Positions 1 to 13,019 of a stretch of 36,917 bases of DNA are shown one piece after another. The stretch is from a virus. Taxonomy: Duplodnaviria; Heunggongvirae; Uroviricota; Caudoviricetes. The notes below the pieces were generated by a model. It ran no database searches and had not been told where the DNA came from. It saw only the letters and a list, made by a program, of their open reading frames with translations. Where the stretch lies: the IMG/VR virus record IMGVR_UViG_2711768076_000013; one strand, given 5' to 3'. Position 1 is the stretch's first letter. The number at the start of each line of letters is the position of its first letter. The translations under genes and the position numbers were made by a program.

Positions 1-1032
1 TCAAAAACTTGCTATTGATGTTGGTAGTGTTGCCAGCGGATTAAACCGTAATGCAGTTTCCAGGTGATCCGGTGCCAGATGTGCGTAACGCATAGTCATT
101 TTTATATCGTGATGCCCGAGAATTTTTTGTAAGGCCAGGATATTTCCACCCGACATCATGAAGTGCGCCGCAAACGTATGGCGCAGAACGTGTGTCAGTT
201 GACCGCGAGGGAGCACGATAGACGTTTTTTCCATCACGGATAAAAATTGAAAATAGCAGTCTGTAAAGAAATTGAACCCATCAAGCGCCATGATCTCTTC
301 GTAAAGCTCTTTACTGATAGGGATGCTTCTGTTTTTCTTCCCCTTCGTTCTTACAAAGGTAATTCGGTATTTGGTCACCTGTGAGCGGGTAAGATTTACG
401 GCTTCACGCCAACGTGCGCCTGTGCTTAAGCATATCTTAACTACCAGTGCCAGAATTGGGTCCTGACGTTTGCAATCAGCCAGCAATTCAACAATCTGCT
501 CATGGGTAAGCCATGCCATCTCTTTTTCTGCGATGGTGAATTTTCGCATGTTCTCCAGTGGGTTTGGATACGACCATTCGCCCAGGCGGGATAGTTCGCT
601 AAAAACACTACTTAGATAGCTTTGCTCCAGGTTAATGGTGACCGGGCTGGCTCCTTTCTTCCATTTCTCGCTGAAGTAGATCTCACCTGTCAGGCGTTTA
701 TCTCGATAGTGGGCAAACATTTTAGAGGTGAGATCGGTTGCAAGGGGATTGCCCAGAGCGTCAACCATCAGCAGCAATTTGTCATAGACATGCTGCCCAG
801 CAGTCAGAGATTTACCATGTAGTTTGAACCATAGTTCAACCACGTCTTTCAGTGTTCGACGATCCACTGATTCACCCAGCCAGGGCTTTGCTTCGGTTTC
901 TTCCATCGTGTGGCGCTCAAAAGCCAGAGCTTCGCCTTTGGTGGCGAATTGTTTACGCACACGACGCCCACTGCGTCCGGCGGGGTAACATTCGCAAAGC
1001 CATTTTCCTGTGGTGAGTTTTCGTACTGCCAT
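1..1032 (-). CDS. int: Tyrosine site-specific integrase (P2/186 family)
   Basis: 343-aa ORF ending at window position 1; C-terminal catalytic region HVLRHTFAAHFMM...GHHDIKMTMRYAHL fits the R..HxxR..Y tyrosine recombinase pattern; sits next to the repressor as in P2/186 phages. Confidence 0.9.
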   Translation of the reverse strand: MAVRKLTTGKWLCECYPAGRSGRRVRKQFATKGEALAFERHTMEETEAKPWLGESVDRRTLKDVVELWFKLHGKSLTAGQHVYDKLLLMVDALGNPLATDLTSKMFAHYRDKRLTGEIYFSEKWKKGASPVTINLEQSYLSSVFSELSRLGEWSYPNPLENMRKFTIAEKEMAWLTHEQIVELLADCKRQDPILALVVKICLSTGARWREAVNLTRSQVTKYRITFVRTKGKKNRSIPISKELYEEIMALDGFNFFTDCYFQFLSVMEKTSIVLPRGQLTHVLRHTFAAHFMMSGGNILALQKILGHHDIKMTMRYAHLAPDHLETALRFNPLATLPTSIASF

Positions 1033-1110: not shown

Positions 1111-1482
1111 TCATAAGTACCGATATGATTGCGGGGCCGTTATGTTATCACCTAATGAACTTAGATGAAGCGGTTGATCATAGATTTTTAGATTGCCAAT
1201 TTCTATAGCAAAGGCTTTTTCTTTGCTATGAAAATATGAGTCAAAAAATTGTTTGCTGATACCTGCGTATTGGCTTGTTTTTTCCCATACAATACTTGGC
1301 TTGTCTTCTATAACATCTGCAATGTCAAATTCAGCAACAACTTTACCGACAGGCATTGTTGAATAAATAACCACAGATTTTACATCCGGTTTTTTGAAAA
1401 TTCCTTTTCGGAATTCAAATTTCTTTGTTCCATTAAGGATTTTTTCTACATGCTCTGGGTTAATTGACAATAATACTTTCAT
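1111..1482 (-). CDS. ASCH-domain (PUA-like) protein, last gene of cargo cassette
   Basis: Start taken at MKVLLSINPEHVEKILNGTKKFEFRK (the ORF track extends to 1494); this N-terminus resembles the ASCH fold of E. coli YqfB as recalled. AT-rich. Overlaps the stop of the upstream gene, so likely translationally coupled. Confidence 0.5.
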   Translation of the reverse strand: MKVLLSINPEHVEKILNGTKKFEFRKGIFKKPDVKSVVIYSTMPVGKVVAEFDIADVIEDKPSIVWEKTSQYAGISKQFFDSYFHSKEKAFAIEIGNLKIYDQPLHLSSLGDNITAPQSYRYL

Positions 1483-2530
1483 TGACGCCACCAAGTTTAA
1501 TAATGCTATTAAACTGTTCGTTTGTTAACTTCATGATCCCCCAGTAAGCTCGCGGGGATAATCCTACTTCAGAAATAAGTTTAGCACGATTTAGTCTTTT
1601 GGGCAAAGCAAGGTTATATGTAAAGCTTATAATATATGGGTATTTTTTTGTTCTATAAAAACTTTTAAGCTCAGATTCTGTAAAAACAGAATATCTAGAA
1701 CAGTAATTTAGAAATTCTTTCTCTGTAACGAAAGAGTTTATATTTCTAACTTTTTCTACTACACATAAAGAAGTAGCAACAGAACGGTAATATGCAGGCC
1801 CTTGATTATCGGATGTTCGGTATATAACGATTATATCGTTTGGCTTCATTAATTCAACATCTGACATGCCACAAATATATACTTTTCTAATGCTATTTGC
1901 ATATGATACATCAGCAACAACGTCTGGTGACTCTGTAATTAATTTTGAGTCAGGGAATAAACGAGTATGAAATACGGGGTATATTGAAAGCAAGAATTTA
2001 TTTTCACTGCCTCTGTTATTAATAAATGGATAATCTGACAGTATATCGCCAGTAAGAGCATTACTATTCATTTCTTTTATTAGTACTCGCTCTACACCAT
2101 TTTGAGATTCTTTTACTCCAATATCTATAAAGCCATAGATTTTGAATAGTCTAATTAAGTAGTCATGTTTTTCAAAAACAGTCACATATATATTGTTAGC
2201 ATTATTATCTAGAGCGTGATCGAATATTTTTTTTAAAAATCGTTGACCACGAAGAGTTCCTTTTGGATTAAATTTAAATGTTCCAACTTTTAGATGAATA
2301 CCATCAGGAATATTTGGTTTTGTATCTTCAATGATACCCACTTCTGTTTTTAGATACAAAAAACCATCAATTTTATTTTGTTCATCATAAAGGACATATG
2401 CATAATCATTTGATTTACATTTAGAATGGAACCAATCAATAAACCCATGAGCATAATCGGATTTTAAAGAGTCAAAAAAAACATCAGAAAAATCTACTTG
2501 ATTAAAAGGTATGTATTTTAAGTTTTCCAT
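1460..2530 (-). CDS. GNAT-like acetyltransferase-fold protein with extra C-terminal domain (cargo)
   Basis: 356-aa ORF. The segment NIYVTVFEKHDYLIRLFKIYGFIDIG resembles GNAT motif B and GTLRGQRFLKKIF lies where motif A would be. Very AT-rich. Start codon 2 nt from the stop of the upstream gene. Confidence 0.45.
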   Translation of the reverse strand: MENLKYIPFNQVDFSDVFFDSLKSDYAHGFIDWFHSKCKSNDYAYVLYDEQNKIDGFLYLKTEVGIIEDTKPNIPDGIHLKVGTFKFNPKGTLRGQRFLKKIFDHALDNNANNIYVTVFEKHDYLIRLFKIYGFIDIGVKESQNGVERVLIKEMNSNALTGDILSDYPFINNRGSENKFLLSIYPVFHTRLFPDSKLITESPDVVADVSYANSIRKVYICGMSDVELMKPNDIIVIYRTSDNQGPAYYRSVATSLCVVEKVRNINSFVTEKEFLNYCSRYSVFTESELKSFYRTKKYPYIISFTYNLALPKRLNRAKLISEVGLSPRAYWGIMKLTNEQFNSIIKLGGVNESIIVN

Positions 2531-2532
2531 GT

Positions 2533-3315
2533 TTACAATCCTATTTTAAAATCACATGATAAGCAAATTGATTTAGTTTTAGATATGACGGCGAGTGTTT
2601 TCCCCGGAGTTTGACAATTAGTACAAACATTCCAATTTTTCGGTTTTCCATCAATCTTATATATGTTGGCTAAAATATCATCTAAAGGAAAAAATGTTTT
2701 CATCATGTCTATAATGCTTGCTGCATAGTTTTTCTTTGCCTCGACTAATTTTTGTTCAGGCATGTTTTTATCATTTATCAAGCAATGAACCAGGTTATTA
2801 AGAGGCTCTTGATATATCTCCTCTCGAAAAATTAGAAATGCACTTAAAAAGTCTTTACGTATTTCTTTATTATTACTTTTACCTAAGTGAATTACTTTAT
2901 TTCTTTCTTTGCGCAAAATATCATAAATTTCATTAAAGCGCGGTGAAAGATTTCGCCCACTGATACTTTGTGCTATTCTATGTAGCTCGGTTGCGTCTAA
3001 TGTTGAACATTCGAAAAATGATTTGTTTTTATAGCAGTCTTTTACTTCTTTTAAAAGTAAATAAACACTATGCTCAGCAATTATAGACTTTAGATATATT
3101 TCAGCAGAATTAAAGAGTATTACCAAGCCAGATTGAAAGAAACTCTCTTTTTCGGATATTAAGCGTTTCAGTCGTTGTTCTTCTGTTTCAGGTTGAGCTG
3201 GGGCTTGCAATAACTCAATGTCAGAATAAAAATGTAAGTAGAATGTTTTAATGAAAAACTCAAGGTTCCTTTTGGCATAAAGAAGCATCTCTTCATTGTT
3301 AGGAAGGTCTGTCAT
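2533..3315 (-). CDS. Hypothetical protein with HEPN-like R-N-x3-H motif and C-terminal CxxC..CxxC zinc ribbon (cargo)
   Basis: 260-aa ORF. Contains ERNKVIH (Rx4H with N after R, as in HEPN RNases) and a C-terminal CTNCQ...CLSCD. AT-rich. Its ATG directly abuts the cI stop (TAAATG on the coding strand). Confidence 0.4.
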   Translation of the reverse strand: MTDLPNNEEMLLYAKRNLEFFIKTFYLHFYSDIELLQAPAQPETEEQRLKRLISEKESFFQSGLVILFNSAEIYLKSIIAEHSVYLLLKEVKDCYKNKSFFECSTLDATELHRIAQSISGRNLSPRFNEIYDILRKERNKVIHLGKSNNKEIRKDFLSAFLIFREEIYQEPLNNLVHCLINDKNMPEQKLVEAKKNYAASIIDMMKTFFPLDDILANIYKIDGKPKNWNVCTNCQTPGKTLAVISKTKSICLSCDFKIGL

Positions 3316-4272
3316 TTAAATATCCTTATATATACCAAAACATTTTGCTATTACATTAATATCCGCTAATAGACATTCAAAAGTTGTACTTTCATTAGAT
3401 ACTTTTACTTTTGCAATTGGAATTCTGGTTAGATCTCTAACACTAAATTTTCCTTCGATTTCAACTAACCATTTTCCATCGGTTACTTCATCAAATGCTT
3501 TGTCTGCAAGATATACATTTCCTTCATCTACTATAGATATGGGGTTTTTCACCTTGCTGGGTAACATGGTTTTATCAAAAGGGAGATAATTTGTATCAAA
3601 CAACATACCATTTATAACTTTTTTCCGTGTGATAGCAATAATATCGCTCTTAGCGTCTTCAAAGACAGGACCATTACCGGTTGTTAGCCACATTAATGAA
3701 GCTCCGGTTTCAAGTGCGCACTGGATGATCCAATCAGCTGGAAAGGTATCTCTCATGTAACGATTGGCTAATGTGCTTTTTGAAACACCAATGTGATCCG
3801 CTAGAGCTTGCCTTGTCTTAAATCCATAGGCGATAACTATTCGCTCGATTGCCGCTTTTCCTCCTTGATTAACCTCAATGAGGCTCTCGTTCTTTCGGTG
3901 AGTATTGTTCTCATTTGGGGATTTTGTGTCTAAAGTGAGAGAATGAATCTCCTTACCATCTTTATGGTGGTTCTGTTCTGTATTATGTGTGACAGCCTCT
4001 ACTGTGTTATCGGTACCAAATGCCAACCATTCAACCGACACGCCAGTTTCCATGCTGCAGATTATGACCCAGTCGGCAGGGAAGGTATCACGAGCATATC
4101 TGTTCGCCATTGTGCTTTGGGATATCCCTAAGTGGTTACAGAATGCTTGACGTGAAGTGAAGCCATAAGCTTTCAAAATTCGGTCAATGACCTGTTGCCC
4201 TCCACGATTCTGCATGATTACAGTTTTCATTGCATCATCAACATGGCGAAATGTGATTTTGTGTGTTGACAT
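3316..4272 (-). CDS. cI: CI-type immunity repressor with two tandem N-terminal HTH domains
   Basis: 318 aa. Two diverged copies of a phage CI-repressor HTH (ILKAYGFTSRQAFCNHLGISQSTMANRYARDTFPADW and IVIAYGFKTRQALADHIGVSKSTLANRYMRDTFPADW), then a C-terminal domain resembling phage 186 CI as recalled. Divergent from the apl-like gene. Confidence 0.8.
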   Translation of the reverse strand: MSTHKITFRHVDDAMKTVIMQNRGGQQVIDRILKAYGFTSRQAFCNHLGISQSTMANRYARDTFPADWVIICSMETGVSVEWLAFGTDNTVEAVTHNTEQNHHKDGKEIHSLTLDTKSPNENNTHRKNESLIEVNQGGKAAIERIVIAYGFKTRQALADHIGVSKSTLANRYMRDTFPADWIIQCALETGASLMWLTTGNGPVFEDAKSDIIAITRKKVINGMLFDTNYLPFDKTMLPSKVKNPISIVDEGNVYLADKAFDEVTDGKWLVEIEGKFSVRDLTRIPIAKVKVSNESTTFECLLADINVIAKCFGIYKDI

Positions 4273-9583: not shown

Positions 9584-9772
9584 ATGCAGGACTATTTTTT
9601 GGAGTCTTTGAAGCTCCAGCGCATTGATTTTTTTCTTAAGCTTGTAGCGGCTAGTGAGTGTAGTGATGAAGAGAAGGGGCTGGCTCTGCAGTGGGTTTCT
9701 GAATTGACTGATGAACTCATGGCAAAAATCAGAACCCACGAATACAACCGCTCAATGGATGTCATCAGCTGA
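9584..9772 (+). CDS. Small SOS-regulated protein (possible Tum-like antirepressor module component)
   Basis: 62-aa ORF with GGAGG before ATG 9584, directly downstream of the SOS box and upstream of the DinI-like gene. Confidence 0.4.
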   Translation: MQDYFLESLKLQRIDFFLKLVAASECSDEEKGLALQWVSELTDELMAKIRTHEYNRSMDVIS

Positions 9773-9782
9773 GGTGACTTTT

Positions 9783-10016
9783 ATGCGCATTGAAATAATG
9801 ATCGATAAAGAGCAGAAGATTAGCCAGTCTACCCTGGACGCCCTTGAATCCGAGCTTTACCGCAATCTGCGCCCCCTGTATCCCAAAACGGTAATTCGCA
9901 TTCGCAAAGGTAGCTCTAACGGTGTGGAACTAACCGGACTGCAACTGGACGAAGAAAGAAAACAAGTGATGAAAATTATGCAGAAGGTGTGGGAAGACGA
10001 CAGCTGGCTGCATTAA
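9783..10016 (+). CDS. DinI-like protein
   Basis: MRIEIMIDKEQKISQSTLDALESELYRNLRPLYPKTVIRIRKGSSNGVELTGL...WEDDSWL resembles E. coli DinI as recalled (MRIEV..., C-terminal W-E-x-x-D-W). Confidence 0.75.
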   Translation: MRIEIMIDKEQKISQSTLDALESELYRNLRPLYPKTVIRIRKGSSNGVELTGLQLDEERKQVMKIMQKVWEDDSWLH

Positions 10017-10176: not shown

Positions 10177-10220
10177 CGTAGATCATGCAGGTGCATGAAA
10201 ACCACTACATAAAGCGGGCA

Positions 10221-10239
10221 GGCGTGGCGGGGATACGAG
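10221..10239. other. Candidate cos cohesive-end sequence
   Basis: GGCGTGGCGGGGATACGAG; the first 13 nt match the 186/P2 cohesive-end sequence as recalled (GGCGTGGCGGGGAAAGCAT). Location between the replication region and the packaging genes is as expected. Confidence 0.4.
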
Positions 10240-10270
10240 CGCGCGCTCATTACTTTTATAATTCTAGGGT

Positions 10271-10276
10271 TATAAT
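10271..10276 (+). promoter_or_regulatory. Putative -10 element for the KAP NTPase gene
   Basis: Perfect TATAAT 29 nt upstream of ATG 10305, followed by AGGAG at 10293..10297. Confidence 0.35.
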
Positions 10277-10304
10277 ACGGGGCTGTCTTTCTAGGAGAAA
10301 ACAC

Positions 10305-11957
10305 ATGTCCTTAGAGTTTATCAAAGAACAGTTGTCAGATTTTATCTCATCTACAGAACCAGAAGTAATGGCTATACAGGGTGAATGGGGAATTGGTAAA
10401 ACCTATACTTGGAATACGTTCCTAAAAGATAATAAAGATAAGGTTGCATTTAATAGATATAGTTATGTCTCTCTTTTTGGTATAAATTCACTAGATTCTT
10501 TAAAGTATTCTATTTTTGAGAATGCAATTACAAAGGAATATATTGGAAATAAACCTGATTTGGAGACAGCAACAACAAACGCAAGTGGACTTTTTGAATC
10601 ATTTTCTCGAAAAGCAGCAGGTTTGTTAAAAGAAGTTCCTGTTGTAAAAAACTTCTCTACGACACTTGAAGCAATGTCATTTCTGACCGTTTCTAAAATG
10701 ATTGTAGTAATAGATGACTTAGAAAGGCGTGGCAAAAATTTAGATGTTAAAGATGTTTTAGGGCTAGTATCTCTATTAAAAGAGCAGAAGGATTGTAAGG
10801 TGGTTCTATTGCTTAACAATGGCACAGCTAGTATGGAGGATTATTCTACTTATAAAGAAAAGGTCATTGATAGAGATATCACTTACAATCCAACACCAGA
10901 AGAATGCGCAGATATAGCCTATAAAGGTGATTCTCATGTTTATAACTTGTTAAGTAAATATTCCATTTCTTTAGGTATCAAGAATATTCGAATCTTAAAA
11001 AAGATAGAACGTTTTTTCGTGTCCTTAATACCAAATATTATAGGTGATGTTGAGACAATTTCAAATGAAGTTGCGCATTCATTAACTCTGTATTGTTGGA
11101 GCCATTACGGATTTTCTCCAGAGGGAGATGTGCCATCACTAGAATATATTAGGGGAGTGAGGAATATATATACTTATAATGACAAGGAAGAAGGCCATGA
11201 GAAAATCTGGCTTAATACCTTGCTTAAATATGGATATAGAAAAACGAATGATCTTGATGAGGTTCTTATTGATATGGTTAGATATGGCTATCTTGATAAG
11301 AGCAGTTTCCAAAGACAAATAAGCCTAAGGAATGAGGAGATTACGCGTGATAATAAACGAGGTTCCTTATCTGAGGCATGGCAGTTCTTTCATAATTCAT
11401 TTGATGACAATCAAAATCAGGTTGTTGACAAGCTATATCAAGCGGTGGTTGATGGGATGAAGTATGTGACTCCAAGTGATTTAGATAATGTTGTCGGACT
11501 ATATAGGGATTTCGGAGAGAATGCTAAGGCGAGTGAATTGATTGAACAGTTTATTAATTATGGTAACGATGCTCTAAAGGAATATGTTCAATCTATTTAT
11601 GTGAATGTTCATCCCGTAAGAGATACTGAGTTGTTGTCAAAAATTCAAGCCTATTCTAAGATTATAAATATTGATGGTTCAATATATGATGTTCTTAAGA
11701 AATTATCAGGTCAGAATGGTTGGTCTGATAGACATGAGGAAATATTGGATGCTGCTTCAGTAGATGACTACTATCAATTATTTAAAAATGTCATTCTTGA
11801 TGGTGGTGATTCAATAATAGCTACGGCGCTTAAATTCGGAAATTTTAGTAATGGTTCTGATAGAATGAATCGTATAGGGAAAAAGGCAAGGGATGCCTTG
11901 ATAAGAATTGGAGATGAATCGGCGATTAATAAAATGCGTGTAAGGCGATTTTTGTGA
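10305..11957 (+). CDS. KAP-family P-loop NTPase (candidate anti-phage or abortive-infection protein)
   Basis: Walker A in QGEWGIGKTYTW and Walker B-like MIVVIDDLERRG, the KAP-family signatures. Strongly AT-rich compared with flanking phage genes. Sits at the P2 tin/old hotspot position between gene A and the portal gene. Confidence 0.7.
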   Translation: MSLEFIKEQLSDFISSTEPEVMAIQGEWGIGKTYTWNTFLKDNKDKVAFNRYSYVSLFGINSLDSLKYSIFENAITKEYIGNKPDLETATTNASGLFESFSRKAAGLLKEVPVVKNFSTTLEAMSFLTVSKMIVVIDDLERRGKNLDVKDVLGLVSLLKEQKDCKVVLLLNNGTASMEDYSTYKEKVIDRDITYNPTPEECADIAYKGDSHVYNLLSKYSISLGIKNIRILKKIERFFVSLIPNIIGDVETISNEVAHSLTLYCWSHYGFSPEGDVPSLEYIRGVRNIYTYNDKEEGHEKIWLNTLLKYGYRKTNDLDEVLIDMVRYGYLDKSSFQRQISLRNEEITRDNKRGSLSEAWQFFHNSFDDNQNQVVDKLYQAVVDGMKYVTPSDLDNVVGLYRDFGENAKASELIEQFINYGNDALKEYVQSIYVNVHPVRDTELLSKIQAYSKIINIDGSIYDVLKKLSGQNGWSDRHEEILDAASVDDYYQLFKNVILDGGDSIIATALKFGNFSNGSDRMNRIGKKARDALIRIGDESAINKMRVRRFL

Positions 11958-11987: not shown

Positions 11988-13019
11988 CTAATTTAATGAG
12001 TAATCATTAAATGCTATGATTTTTTCATTTAGCCAAGTATTAATTTCTATAAGCCTTTTTTGTAACGGAATTAATTCATTTCGGACAAAGACTTTACTAG
12101 CCTTTTCCACATCCCCAAACCCCCCAACATTATTCGGCATTATCCCCATCATTTGCGGCGGCACGCGGTGTGCCGCCATCATGTCGTCCCGGCTCACGTT
12201 CTTGATATTCAAAAACTCATCCTTCGCTGCGACCTCTGACAACGGGATAATCTGAAGCCCGTCCTTTTTGCCGTTAGGCGAGTACATAAACAGGTTGCGG
12301 AAGTTGCCCGGACCTTTGGCGCTTTTCATCGCGTTGCGGAGGTTGTTCACATCCTCTTGGTTTTGCGCAGCATCGGTCATATACATGATGAAGCCTGCAT
12401 GGCTGCCGTTAATGTAATACTTACGGCGGAACAACGTGGCGGACTCGTTGAGCAGAGCTGACGGAATGGCAGAAAGATAACCGGGCAGGCCGTAGATCTC
12501 CTGGTTGATATCCGGTTCCATCAGATGAAAGATGCTGCCTTTCGTGAACTGATACGGCTGCGTAGTCATGCCGTATTGCACAAACCAGTAGGTATCCAGG
12601 TCTAACCCGCGTCGGGTGTATTTTGCCAGCGCAGGTTCAAGGGCGATAACTTCACCGAAGCGGTTCGTGCGTTTCTCCAGGTAAGCGTTACCAAATACCA
12701 GATAGTCCTGCACAAAACGTGAAAAAGCCTGCTGGCTGAGAAGCGGGTGAGGGATGTAGGTACTGGTCAGAATGTTGCATTTCACCGCAATTGGTGAACT
12801 GTGATGCACGGCAGCGCGGAAGGTTCGCGCCAGTCCGTCAAAACTCACTGGCGGCTCATACCAGCGATCTGTCTGTACGCATTCTACATAGTCCAGCAGT
12901 TCGCGGCGGTCCAGAACAGGAACGGGATCGCCAAAGCTGAATGCTTCGGCTGAAGTCTGGCTTTTGTGCTGAATCTGGTTCGTCGACACAGCGCGGTTCT
13001 TCTTACTCTTTCCCATCAA
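11988..13019 (-). CDS. Q: Capsid portal protein (P2 gpQ homologue)
   Basis: 343 aa, matching P2 gpQ in size; overlaps the terminase gene as in P2. Confidence 0.85.
   Translation of the reverse strand: MMGKSKKNRAVSTNQIQHKSQTSAEAFSFGDPVPVLDRRELLDYVECVQTDRWYEPPVSFDGLARTFRAAVHHSSPIAVKCNILTSTYIPHPLLSQQAFSRFVQDYLVFGNAYLEKRTNRFGEVIALEPALAKYTRRGLDLDTYWFVQYGMTTQPYQFTKGSIFHLMEPDINQEIYGLPGYLSAIPSALLNESATLFRRKYYINGSHAGFIMYMTDAAQNQEDVNNLRNAMKSAKGPGNFRNLFMYSPNGKKDGLQIIPLSEVAAKDEFLNIKNVSRDDMMAAHRVPPQMMGIMPNNVGGFGDVEKASKVFVRNELIPLQKRLIEINTWLNEKIIAFNDYSLN

Follow-up and report, generated by a model that had tools for sequence, protein, structure and literature searches.

A three-gene cassette of HEPN/zinc-ribbon, GNAT-EVE and ASCH genes between cI and int in a 186-like Escherichia coli prophage

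The virus record IMGVR_UViG_2711768076_000013 in IMG/VR (36,917 nucleotides, nt; the whole stretch is referred to here as the window) is a prophage of P2/186-like type in Escherichia coli. Between its repressor gene, cI, and its integrase gene, int, there are three co-directional genes, which encode, in order, a HEPN protein with a zinc ribbon, a GNAT-EVE fusion protein and an ASCH protein. This three-gene cargo cassette sits in the lysogenic cI-int operon. The last two genes are the core pair of a known family, GNAT-EVE + ASCH, which is listed in PADLOC as candidate system PDC-M11 and is elsewhere annotated as GevT/GevA. The new element is the dedicated HEPN/zinc-ribbon third gene, which is apparently undescribed. 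The reading we favour, at a little short of an even chance, is that the cassette is a toxin/antidote-type conflict module that is expressed in the lysogen and excludes other phages.

The GNAT-EVE protein (356 amino acids, aa; positions 1460-2530, minus strand; GevT-like) and the ASCH protein (123 aa; 1111-1482, minus strand; GevA-like) match the PADLOC profiles PDC-M11A (E 2.4e-130) and PDC-M11B (E 4.9e-48), respectively, both over the full length. GNAT-EVE + ASCH operons were described computationally by Iyer et al. (2013, NAR 41:7635), who, according to the 2020 paper cited next, proposed acetylation of a base in DNA. Bell, Wolf & Koonin (2020, BMC Biol 18:159) reported a distinct EVE cluster that is nearly always fused C-terminally to a GNAT-like domain and in many cases joined by a PIN domain at the N-terminus, and noted that nearly every (PIN)-GNAT-EVE operon carries an ASCH gene, and often one for an AAA_17 ATPase, and that PIN-less forms are found in gamma-proteobacterial prophages. 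They predicted a role in toxin-antitoxin (TA) systems or virus-host conflict, no module having then been characterised. The window pair corresponds to this PIN-less prophage form, with the same fusion of GNAT to a C-terminal PUA/EVE domain and a stand-alone ASCH neighbour. In the literature that was searched, we found no experimental study of GevT/GevA, PDC-M11 or GNAT-EVE after 2020, and no documented mechanism.

When phage genomes were searched using tblastn, homologues were found in 16 records. In Escherichia phage PhiR47_2 (GenBank accession number PV340567.1), full-length orthologues (57 % and 61 % identity) carry the annotations 'GevT toxin' and 'GevA antitoxin'. Their order and overlap match those in the window and the pair lies directly downstream of the repressor gene cI, but PhiR47_2 is lambdoid, not 186-like, and has two genes and no HEPN gene. 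The pair is also found immediately after cI in seven other lambdoid records (six further phages: 4A7, Lambda_4C10, D2, 1W, 3W and IdasGreatGrand). In phage lambda, this position is held by rexAB.

The first gene of the cassette (2533-3315, minus strand) encodes a 260 aa protein that resembles HEPN ribonucleases and has a zinc ribbon at its C-terminus. The structural model (confidence score pLDDT 91) confirmed a helical HEPN fold. The Rx4H motif, R138-N139-K-V-I-H143, is at 2887-2904 and RNxxxH is invariant in 21 sequences, while the zinc-ribbon cysteines (CxxC...CxxC; C231, C234, C251 and C254, at 2554-2625) are invariant in the homologues. The family is tiny, with only 24 clusters among 5.8 billion proteins, several of them sharing contigs with GNAT-EVE matches, and the protein had no match in the phage collection. 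All six of the family members that were looked up (35-80 % identity) are directly upstream of a gene for a protein of ~355 aa, which is followed by an ASCH gene. The window copy and locus L002 show the same placement, bringing the number of contexts to eight. Yersinia ruckeri, Pectobacterium and Photobacterium carry it in 186-like prophages. Three further contexts are not prophages, namely Dickeya, next to a type VI secretion system, Morganella, between udp and metE, and Enterobacter. The gaps between the HEPN gene and its neighbours are 0-2 nt. As the junctions are tight and the HEPN gene is always beside the pair in the contexts examined, the three genes move as one unit. The HEPN gene is a dedicated component of a GNAT-EVE/ASCH subtype, parallel in function to the fused PIN ribonuclease of other members. 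The HEPN-like protein that the original prediction mentioned as co-expressed with the pair is thus a HEPN protein, though it is a third component rather than simply a co-expressed neighbour. Bell et al. (2020, BMC Biol 18:159) do not mention HEPN, and hence the three-gene form appears undescribed.

That the HEPN gene is instead an independent single-gene system, merely neighbouring the pair in a crowded hotspot, was considered because it is present in only 2 of the 35 loci sampled using GNAT-EVE as the query, because cargo is interchangeable in the cI-int hotspot, and because a 358 aa transmembrane protein replaces it in L001, L003 and L005. However, its position directly upstream of the pair in all six look-ups, in the window and in L002, the three non-prophage contexts, the 0-2 nt gaps and the small size of the family, with its shared contigs, make this explanation very unlikely.

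The HEPN fold and the invariant RNxxxH motif are common to the window protein, the HEPN-MNT toxins and the prophage HEPN defence proteins (such as HepS, ApeA and PD-T4-2 B), and PD-T4-2 occupies the corresponding slot in a sibling prophage (see below). Unlike HEPN-MNT toxins, the window protein has a C-terminal zinc ribbon and belongs to a family that is restricted to GNAT-EVE/ASCH neighbourhoods. No MNT nucleotidyltransferase was found in the cassette or related loci.

The 358 aa protein has no Pfam or PADLOC match and its hydrophobic C-terminal helices are predicted to be in the membrane. It is in the HEPN position in L001 (4888-5964), L003, L005 and L027, and in a Vibrio locus (L020, 7601-8689) a protein of this type is embedded in a convergent ASCH-AAA_17 operon. 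This placement hints at interchangeable accessory modules, and the protein may serve as an alternative accessory or effector. In an Enterobacter contig (L052, 4786-5772), the GNAT-EVE gene is shortened (328 versus 358 aa) beside intact HEPN and ASCH genes, possibly through natural inactivation of the large protein.

The cassette is flanked upstream by the co-directional gene for a 186-type CI repressor (3316-4272, minus strand) with two Phage_CI_repr helix-turn-helix (HTH) domains and a CI C-terminal domain (Pfam PF07022, E 1e-57; PF16452, E 7e-31; 'phage repressor protein CI' in RefSeq). Downstream, the last gene of the array, identified from the list of open reading frames, encodes the tyrosine integrase of the prophage (1-1032, minus strand; 'phage integrase' in RefSeq). 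The cI stop codon abuts the HEPN start codon (TAAATG), 2 nt separate the HEPN stop from the GNAT-EVE start, and there is a 23 nt overlap between GNAT-EVE and ASCH when the latter is read from the ATG at 1482. A scan of the cassette for promoters and terminators gave nothing beyond the shuffled expectation. Because the cassette is inside the repressor operon, the gene arrangement predicts that it is expressed in the lysogen.

The GC content of the cassette is 0.30-0.35, compared to 0.45-0.60 in the rest of the phage. Among 5426 complete E. coli genomes, the whole 4.4 kb int-to-cI stretch was found in 28 and its int or cI parts in 1134. On these grounds, the three-gene set is variable cargo. Comparison of the cassette DNA with the phage collection gave a sole match of 79 nt, at the integrase-proximal end. 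In complete E. coli genomes, rcdA adjoins the prophage, and the plus strand of the window includes CII-like, Fil, Dam and replication gene A functions. The window CI is unusually long, at 318 aa for the longest open reading frame or 299 aa in RefSeq; the CI proteins of sibling prophages are 198, 289 and 316 aa.

Both open reading frames of the pair are present on the minus strand, as originally reported, though the 124 aa given for the smaller one counts 123 codons and the stop. The larger has 2611 homologues (1337 representatives at 50 % identity) and, together with the PADLOC matches, these establish the two as real genes rather than chance reading frames. The larger protein has a GNAT domain at aa 1-~160 (about 2051-2530) and a PUA-superfamily (EVE/ASCH-like) domain at aa ~170-356 (1463-2023). 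The Pfam match to Acetyltransf_10 (E 0.048) is below the cut-off and weak alone. However, a profile of 65 homologues matched the GNAT enzyme PaiA (1tiq) among PDB sequences with E 9e-5, and the segment NIYVTVFEKHDYLIRLFKIYGFIDIG (aa 113-138, window 2117-2194) aligns with the beta5-alpha4-beta6 region of PaiA. In the AlphaFold model (pLDDT 88, pTM 0.86), GNAT and PUA-like folds were recognised by fold search, and, taking the profile search against the PDB and the fold searches together, the best matches to the GNAT domain are N-terminal acetyltransferases and PaiA. The GNAT-like assignment therefore holds. The extra C-terminal domain that had been noted is also present, though it had not been recognised as PUA-like.

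The beta4-alpha3 loop of the GNAT domain, in which G91, R94-G95, R97 and K100-K101 show no or almost no variation, aligns, with a two-residue insertion, with the loop of PaiA that binds the pyrophosphate of coenzyme A (CoA), and the CoA-loop-like segment G91-K101 (2228-2260) is conserved. The position of a PaiA Tyr, which we take to be the canonical catalytic residue and general acid, is occupied by an invariant Phe, Phe129, in the GNAT-EVE family. As the CoA-type loop has been kept but this Tyr has not, the domain is likely to bind acyl-CoA while acyl transfer is only putative. For the C-terminal domain, the best structural match found by fold search was the ASCH protein ZmASCH of Zymomonas mobilis (ZMO0922; PDB 5GUQ/5GUS). 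The Glu and Arg of the ASCH octapeptide are not kept in this domain, and it is therefore more likely to be a reader than a hydrolase. Profile-profile alignment with the ASCH partner gave only a 22-column match, so that homology of the two PUA-like domains is argued from structure, not from sequence. The sole low-confidence segment of the model (residues 201-209, pLDDT below 50) is a loop that includes the invariant D207 and S209, and may be a flexible substrate-binding loop.

The ASCH gene probably starts at the ATG at 1482. The reading frame extends to a TTG at 1494 (1111-1494, 127 aa), but the ATG is preferred because the Met is invariant in 34 homologues, a GGTGG Shine-Dalgarno sequence is found upstream and RefSeq entry WP_000866326.1 has the same start. 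The Pfam ASCH score is 25.1 bits (cut-off 21.2) and LSINPEHVEKILNGTKKFEFRK is a genuine ASCH N-terminus, in line with the original assignment. The GKER octapeptide, G22-T-K24-K-F-E27-F-R29 (1408-1431), is intact and, across the 34 ASCH partner proteins, K24, E27, R29, Y44, T46, W70 and P121-Q122-S123 are invariant. Pfam detected no DNA-binding domain in the window ASCH protein.

An analogy with YqfB, an N4-acetylcytidine (ac4C) amidohydrolase, had been drawn. Both are small stand-alone ASCH proteins, but the YqfB-type octapeptide is GK[T/S]R (with Thr24) and not GKER. A phmmer search of PDB sequences with the window protein found only the four ZmASCH entries at E<=10 (E 4e-8). The structure of YqfB is presumably in that library, in which case the window ASCH has no detectable sequence similarity to it. 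A YqfB-type assignment was rejected because of the octapeptide. ZmASCH shares the GKER octapeptide, Tyr47 (Y44 in the window protein) and Gln127-Ser128 (Q122-S123), and matches PDC-M11B with E 3e-29. It differs in that its Lys53 corresponds to an invariant Gly in the window family, and in that its gene is chromosomal and outside any prophage. Judged by the octapeptide and the Tyr47 equivalent, the window ASCH is a GKER-type protein of the ZmASCH subfamily. The activities reported, partly in vitro, are those of relatives. ZmASCH has been reported to be a weak Mg-dependent nuclease for single-stranded RNA, dependent on Tyr47 and Ser128, and to remove ac4C34 from tRNA in vitro. In a February 2026 preprint, all 19 ASCH proteins tested, including GKER-type proteins and ZmASCH, stripped ac4C34 from E. 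coli tRNA in vitro, and the Lys and Glu/Thr of the octapeptide were essential.

ZmASCH was examined as a possible solved GevA orthologue with a GNAT-EVE partner, and rejected. In Z. mobilis (L047, 3825-5447), the gene 49 nt upstream encodes a 375 aa protein that has no family match, no similarity to GNAT-EVE by BLAST or hhalign and no PADLOC match. Likewise, the overlapping neighbour of a Neorhizobium relative (L049), a 721 aa GNAT-containing protein, is unrelated to the GNAT-EVE family; this locus adjoins genes for a Type ISP enzyme and a reverse transcriptase. The ZmASCH-type subfamily may thus partner with several different upstream proteins.

GNAT-EVE and ASCH are an obligate pair. In 34 genomes from different species, all encoding a GNAT-EVE relative at 47-75 % identity, the ASCH gene adjoins the GNAT-EVE gene in every locus. 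It is downstream, on the same strand and overlapping in 29 of the 34, and convergent in the remaining five. An AAA_17 P-loop gene is beside the pair in 9 of 35 loci and absent from the window cassette. In Vibrio (L020, 7079-7546) and Photobacterium (L035, 7362-7919) loci, a further small GNAT gene that stands alone and encodes 155-185 aa (Pfam Acetyltransf_1, E 2e-8, with a weak match to PDC-M11A) lies in a convergent operon with ASCH.

Obligate pairing and overlapping, apparently translationally coupled genes are what a classical type II TA system would show, with the ASCH protein neutralising a GNAT-EVE toxin by binding it in a stoichiometric complex and the main role being prophage stabilisation or addiction. 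The GevT/GevA label in GenBank points the same way, as do the HTH-ASCH fusions of alpha-proteobacteria (Bell et al. 2020, BMC Biol 18:159), which suggest autoregulating antitoxins. However, the catalytic-type ASCH residues are invariant, convergent arrangements exist, the putative toxin gene comes first and the window ASCH lacks a recognisable DNA-binding domain. We consider this less likely than the favoured reading, and rather improbable.

The architecture of the relatives also bears on function. Among the best 150 representatives, 41 are shorter than 300 aa (fragments), 69 are 300-380 aa (core-only), 5 are 381-470 aa, 22 are about 500 aa (the member sampled, P0169, is PIN-GNAT-EVE) and 13 are longer than 540 aa. 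Two fusions (P0200 and P0212) are ASCH-PIN-GNAT-EVE and one (P0125) is TIR-GNAT-EVE. A single chain, P0190, is PIN-GNAT-EVE-ASCH, and its C-terminal ASCH domain has GRKKYEYR and PPQS motifs like those of the stand-alone partner.

The evidence that connects the cassette to conflict or defence is all by association. In three E. coli prophages that share int and cI with the window (L042, L043 and L044), the cI-int slot is a cargo hotspot. One sibling has PD-T4-2 (DUF262/GmrSD_N + RiboL-PSP HEPN) in this slot, another has PD-Lambda-1 (a DUF4041-T5orf172 protein) and the third (CFT073) has a 323 aa, DUF2207_C-like membrane protein. PADLOC lists PD-T4-2 and PD-Lambda-1 as defence systems. A Kiwa system adjoins the pair in one locus (L030), and among relatives there are fusions with PIN and TIR, which are effector domains. 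In the P2-like Salmonella phage SopEPhi (L054), the pair (orf12-orf13, 44 % identity) is in the slot between a DinI-like gene and the portal gene Q and not between cI and int, indicating that the module moves between the two P2-type hotspots.

In the window, the DinI-to-portal slot, between the DinI-like gene (9711-10016) and the portal gene Q (11988-13019, minus strand), holds a gene for a 590 aa KAP-family P-loop NTPase (10185-11957, plus strand; Pfam KAP_NTPase, E 4e-7; PADLOC candidate PDC-S49, E 4e-27). The slot forms a second low-GC island, with a GC content of 0.35-0.38 and a strong GC skew.

The location of the cassette also bears on proposals that the pair benefits the phage through DNA modification or counter-defence. 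Here, GNAT-EVE would acetylate a DNA base or shield the phage from restriction, and ASCH would be a reader or regulator. The literature has proposed as much, in that Iyer et al. put forward base acetylation and Bell et al. (2020, BMC Biol 18:159) protection of the phage against restriction by the host; many temperate phages carry the pair, and ASCH and EVE domains can bind modified DNA. Yet the cassette is in the lysogenic cI-int operon, allelic with PD-T4-2 and PD-Lambda-1, and not among lytic or early genes. Moreover, the associated enzymes are ribonucleases (PIN and HEPN) rather than DNA enzymes, and the pair is also found on chromosomes outside prophages. This explanation, too, is less likely than the one we favour, and we regard it as distinctly unlikely.

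For the favoured reading, a lysogen-expressed toxin/antidote-type module, we infer the following mechanism from the folds, motifs and linkage described above. The PUA-like C-terminal domain of GNAT-EVE would dock on nucleic acid, most likely RNA or tRNA with a particular base, and the GNAT domain would move an acyl group from acyl-CoA onto the docked target. The co-translated GKER-type ASCH protein, as a hydrolase, would remove or prevent the acyl mark and so act as an enzymatic antidote. In this subtype, the HEPN ribonuclease would add or execute RNA cleavage once infection upsets the balance. DarT/DarG, in which a nucleic-acid-modifying toxin is paired with an enzyme that removes the modification, is an abortive-infection defence system with comparable logic. 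The analogy is one of logic only, as there is no homology and the modification is ADP-ribosylation there and putative acylation here. Because GKER-type ASCH proteins are reported to deacetylate ac4C in tRNA in vitro (2026 preprint), an acetyl writer/eraser pair is plausible and testable.

The idea of an acetylation/deacetylation effector-antidote pair, with which the original prediction began, is consequently a reasonable statement of what we take to be the leading hypothesis. It agrees with the prediction of Bell et al., the GevT/GevA label, the pairing in 34 of 34 loci and the fusions. It is not new, the pair itself having been reported from computation in 2013 and 2020 and listed as PDC-M11.

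Less survives of the comparison with the GNAT toxins TacT, AtaT and ItaT. These proteins and KacT share with GNAT-EVE the GNAT fold and the proposal that a GNAT enzyme is the toxic part of a two-gene module. Their antitoxin is an upstream ribbon-helix-helix (RHH)/DUF1778 protein and not a downstream ASCH protein, they lack the extra PUA-like domain, and the residue corresponding to the PaiA Tyr is Phe here. They did not appear among the profile-versus-PDB matches at E<=10, nor in the lists of 50 and 60 matches from two fold searches. There is thus no specific kinship, and no RHH-type antitoxin partner.

Several observations weigh against the toxin/antidote reading. The five convergent ASCH genes, and that of L035, are not translationally coupled to GNAT-EVE. 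The presence of writer and eraser in a single chain, in P0190, argues for cooperation over antagonism. As most family members have no HEPN, PIN or TIR domain, a ribonuclease is not a universal effector. The Phe129 in place of the PaiA Tyr and the unrelated protein encoded upstream of ZmASCH are further difficulties. In the 2026 preprint, ZmASCH was inactive on the free nucleoside and did not significantly lower ac4C in vivo. The acylation target could be RNA, DNA or protein. Finally, 'GevT toxin/GevA antitoxin' is a GenBank label only, and we found no paper behind it.

Some of these points are better accommodated if the proteins act together as sensor and effector. The EVE-like domain of the large protein and the ASCH partner, both PUA-like, would jointly recognise a modified base of an invading phage's DNA or RNA, GNAT would modify or mark that nucleic acid, and a variable module (HEPN here, PIN or TIR elsewhere) would kill, with no antagonism involved. 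Every part has been found fused in one chain, ribonuclease or NADase modules (PIN, TIR and HEPN) are swapped around a constant core, and reading modified bases is a known function of PUA, EVE and ASCH domains. The lack of the ASCH catalytic octapeptide in the C-terminal domain of the large protein and the convergent ASCH genes at some loci would also fit. Against this, about two thirds of the full-length representatives are core-only and have no recognisable effector, the invariant ASCH Lys, Glu and Arg point to catalysis and not mere reading, and annotators in GenBank have labelled the pair toxin/antitoxin. The single-chain fusions, the convergent loci and the unrelated neighbour of ZmASCH keep cooperation alive as a minority possibility.

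More broadly, the trio may be an immune module that is run by acylating nucleic acids reversibly. The reversible acyl mark (for example ac4C) on tRNA or RNA, or on modified phage nucleic acid, would be set by a GNAT-PUA writer together with a GKER-ASCH eraser, and it would gate or direct the HEPN/zinc-ribbon ribonuclease, with PIN or TIR having the same role in the fused relatives. We offer this as a conceivable, though doubtful, extension. If true, it would represent a principle that no defence system has yet been shown to use.

The GNAT-EVE/ASCH pair is widespread, with about 2600 clusters of homologues for the large protein and occurrences in bacteria, archaeal viruses, plasmids and many temperate phages, and it has been flagged three times (in 2013, in 2020 and by PADLOC). 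The locus described here is not a surprise but a good experimental handle on an open question. As a compact cassette in a lysogenic operon and a defence slot, with an easily mutable HEPN ribonuclease, it is a convenient entry point in E. coli. If the pair is an ordinary type II TA system instead, the cassette would be a routine prophage cargo module. If the writer/eraser form of toxin and antidote is correct, it would tie RNA acetylation to phage exclusion.

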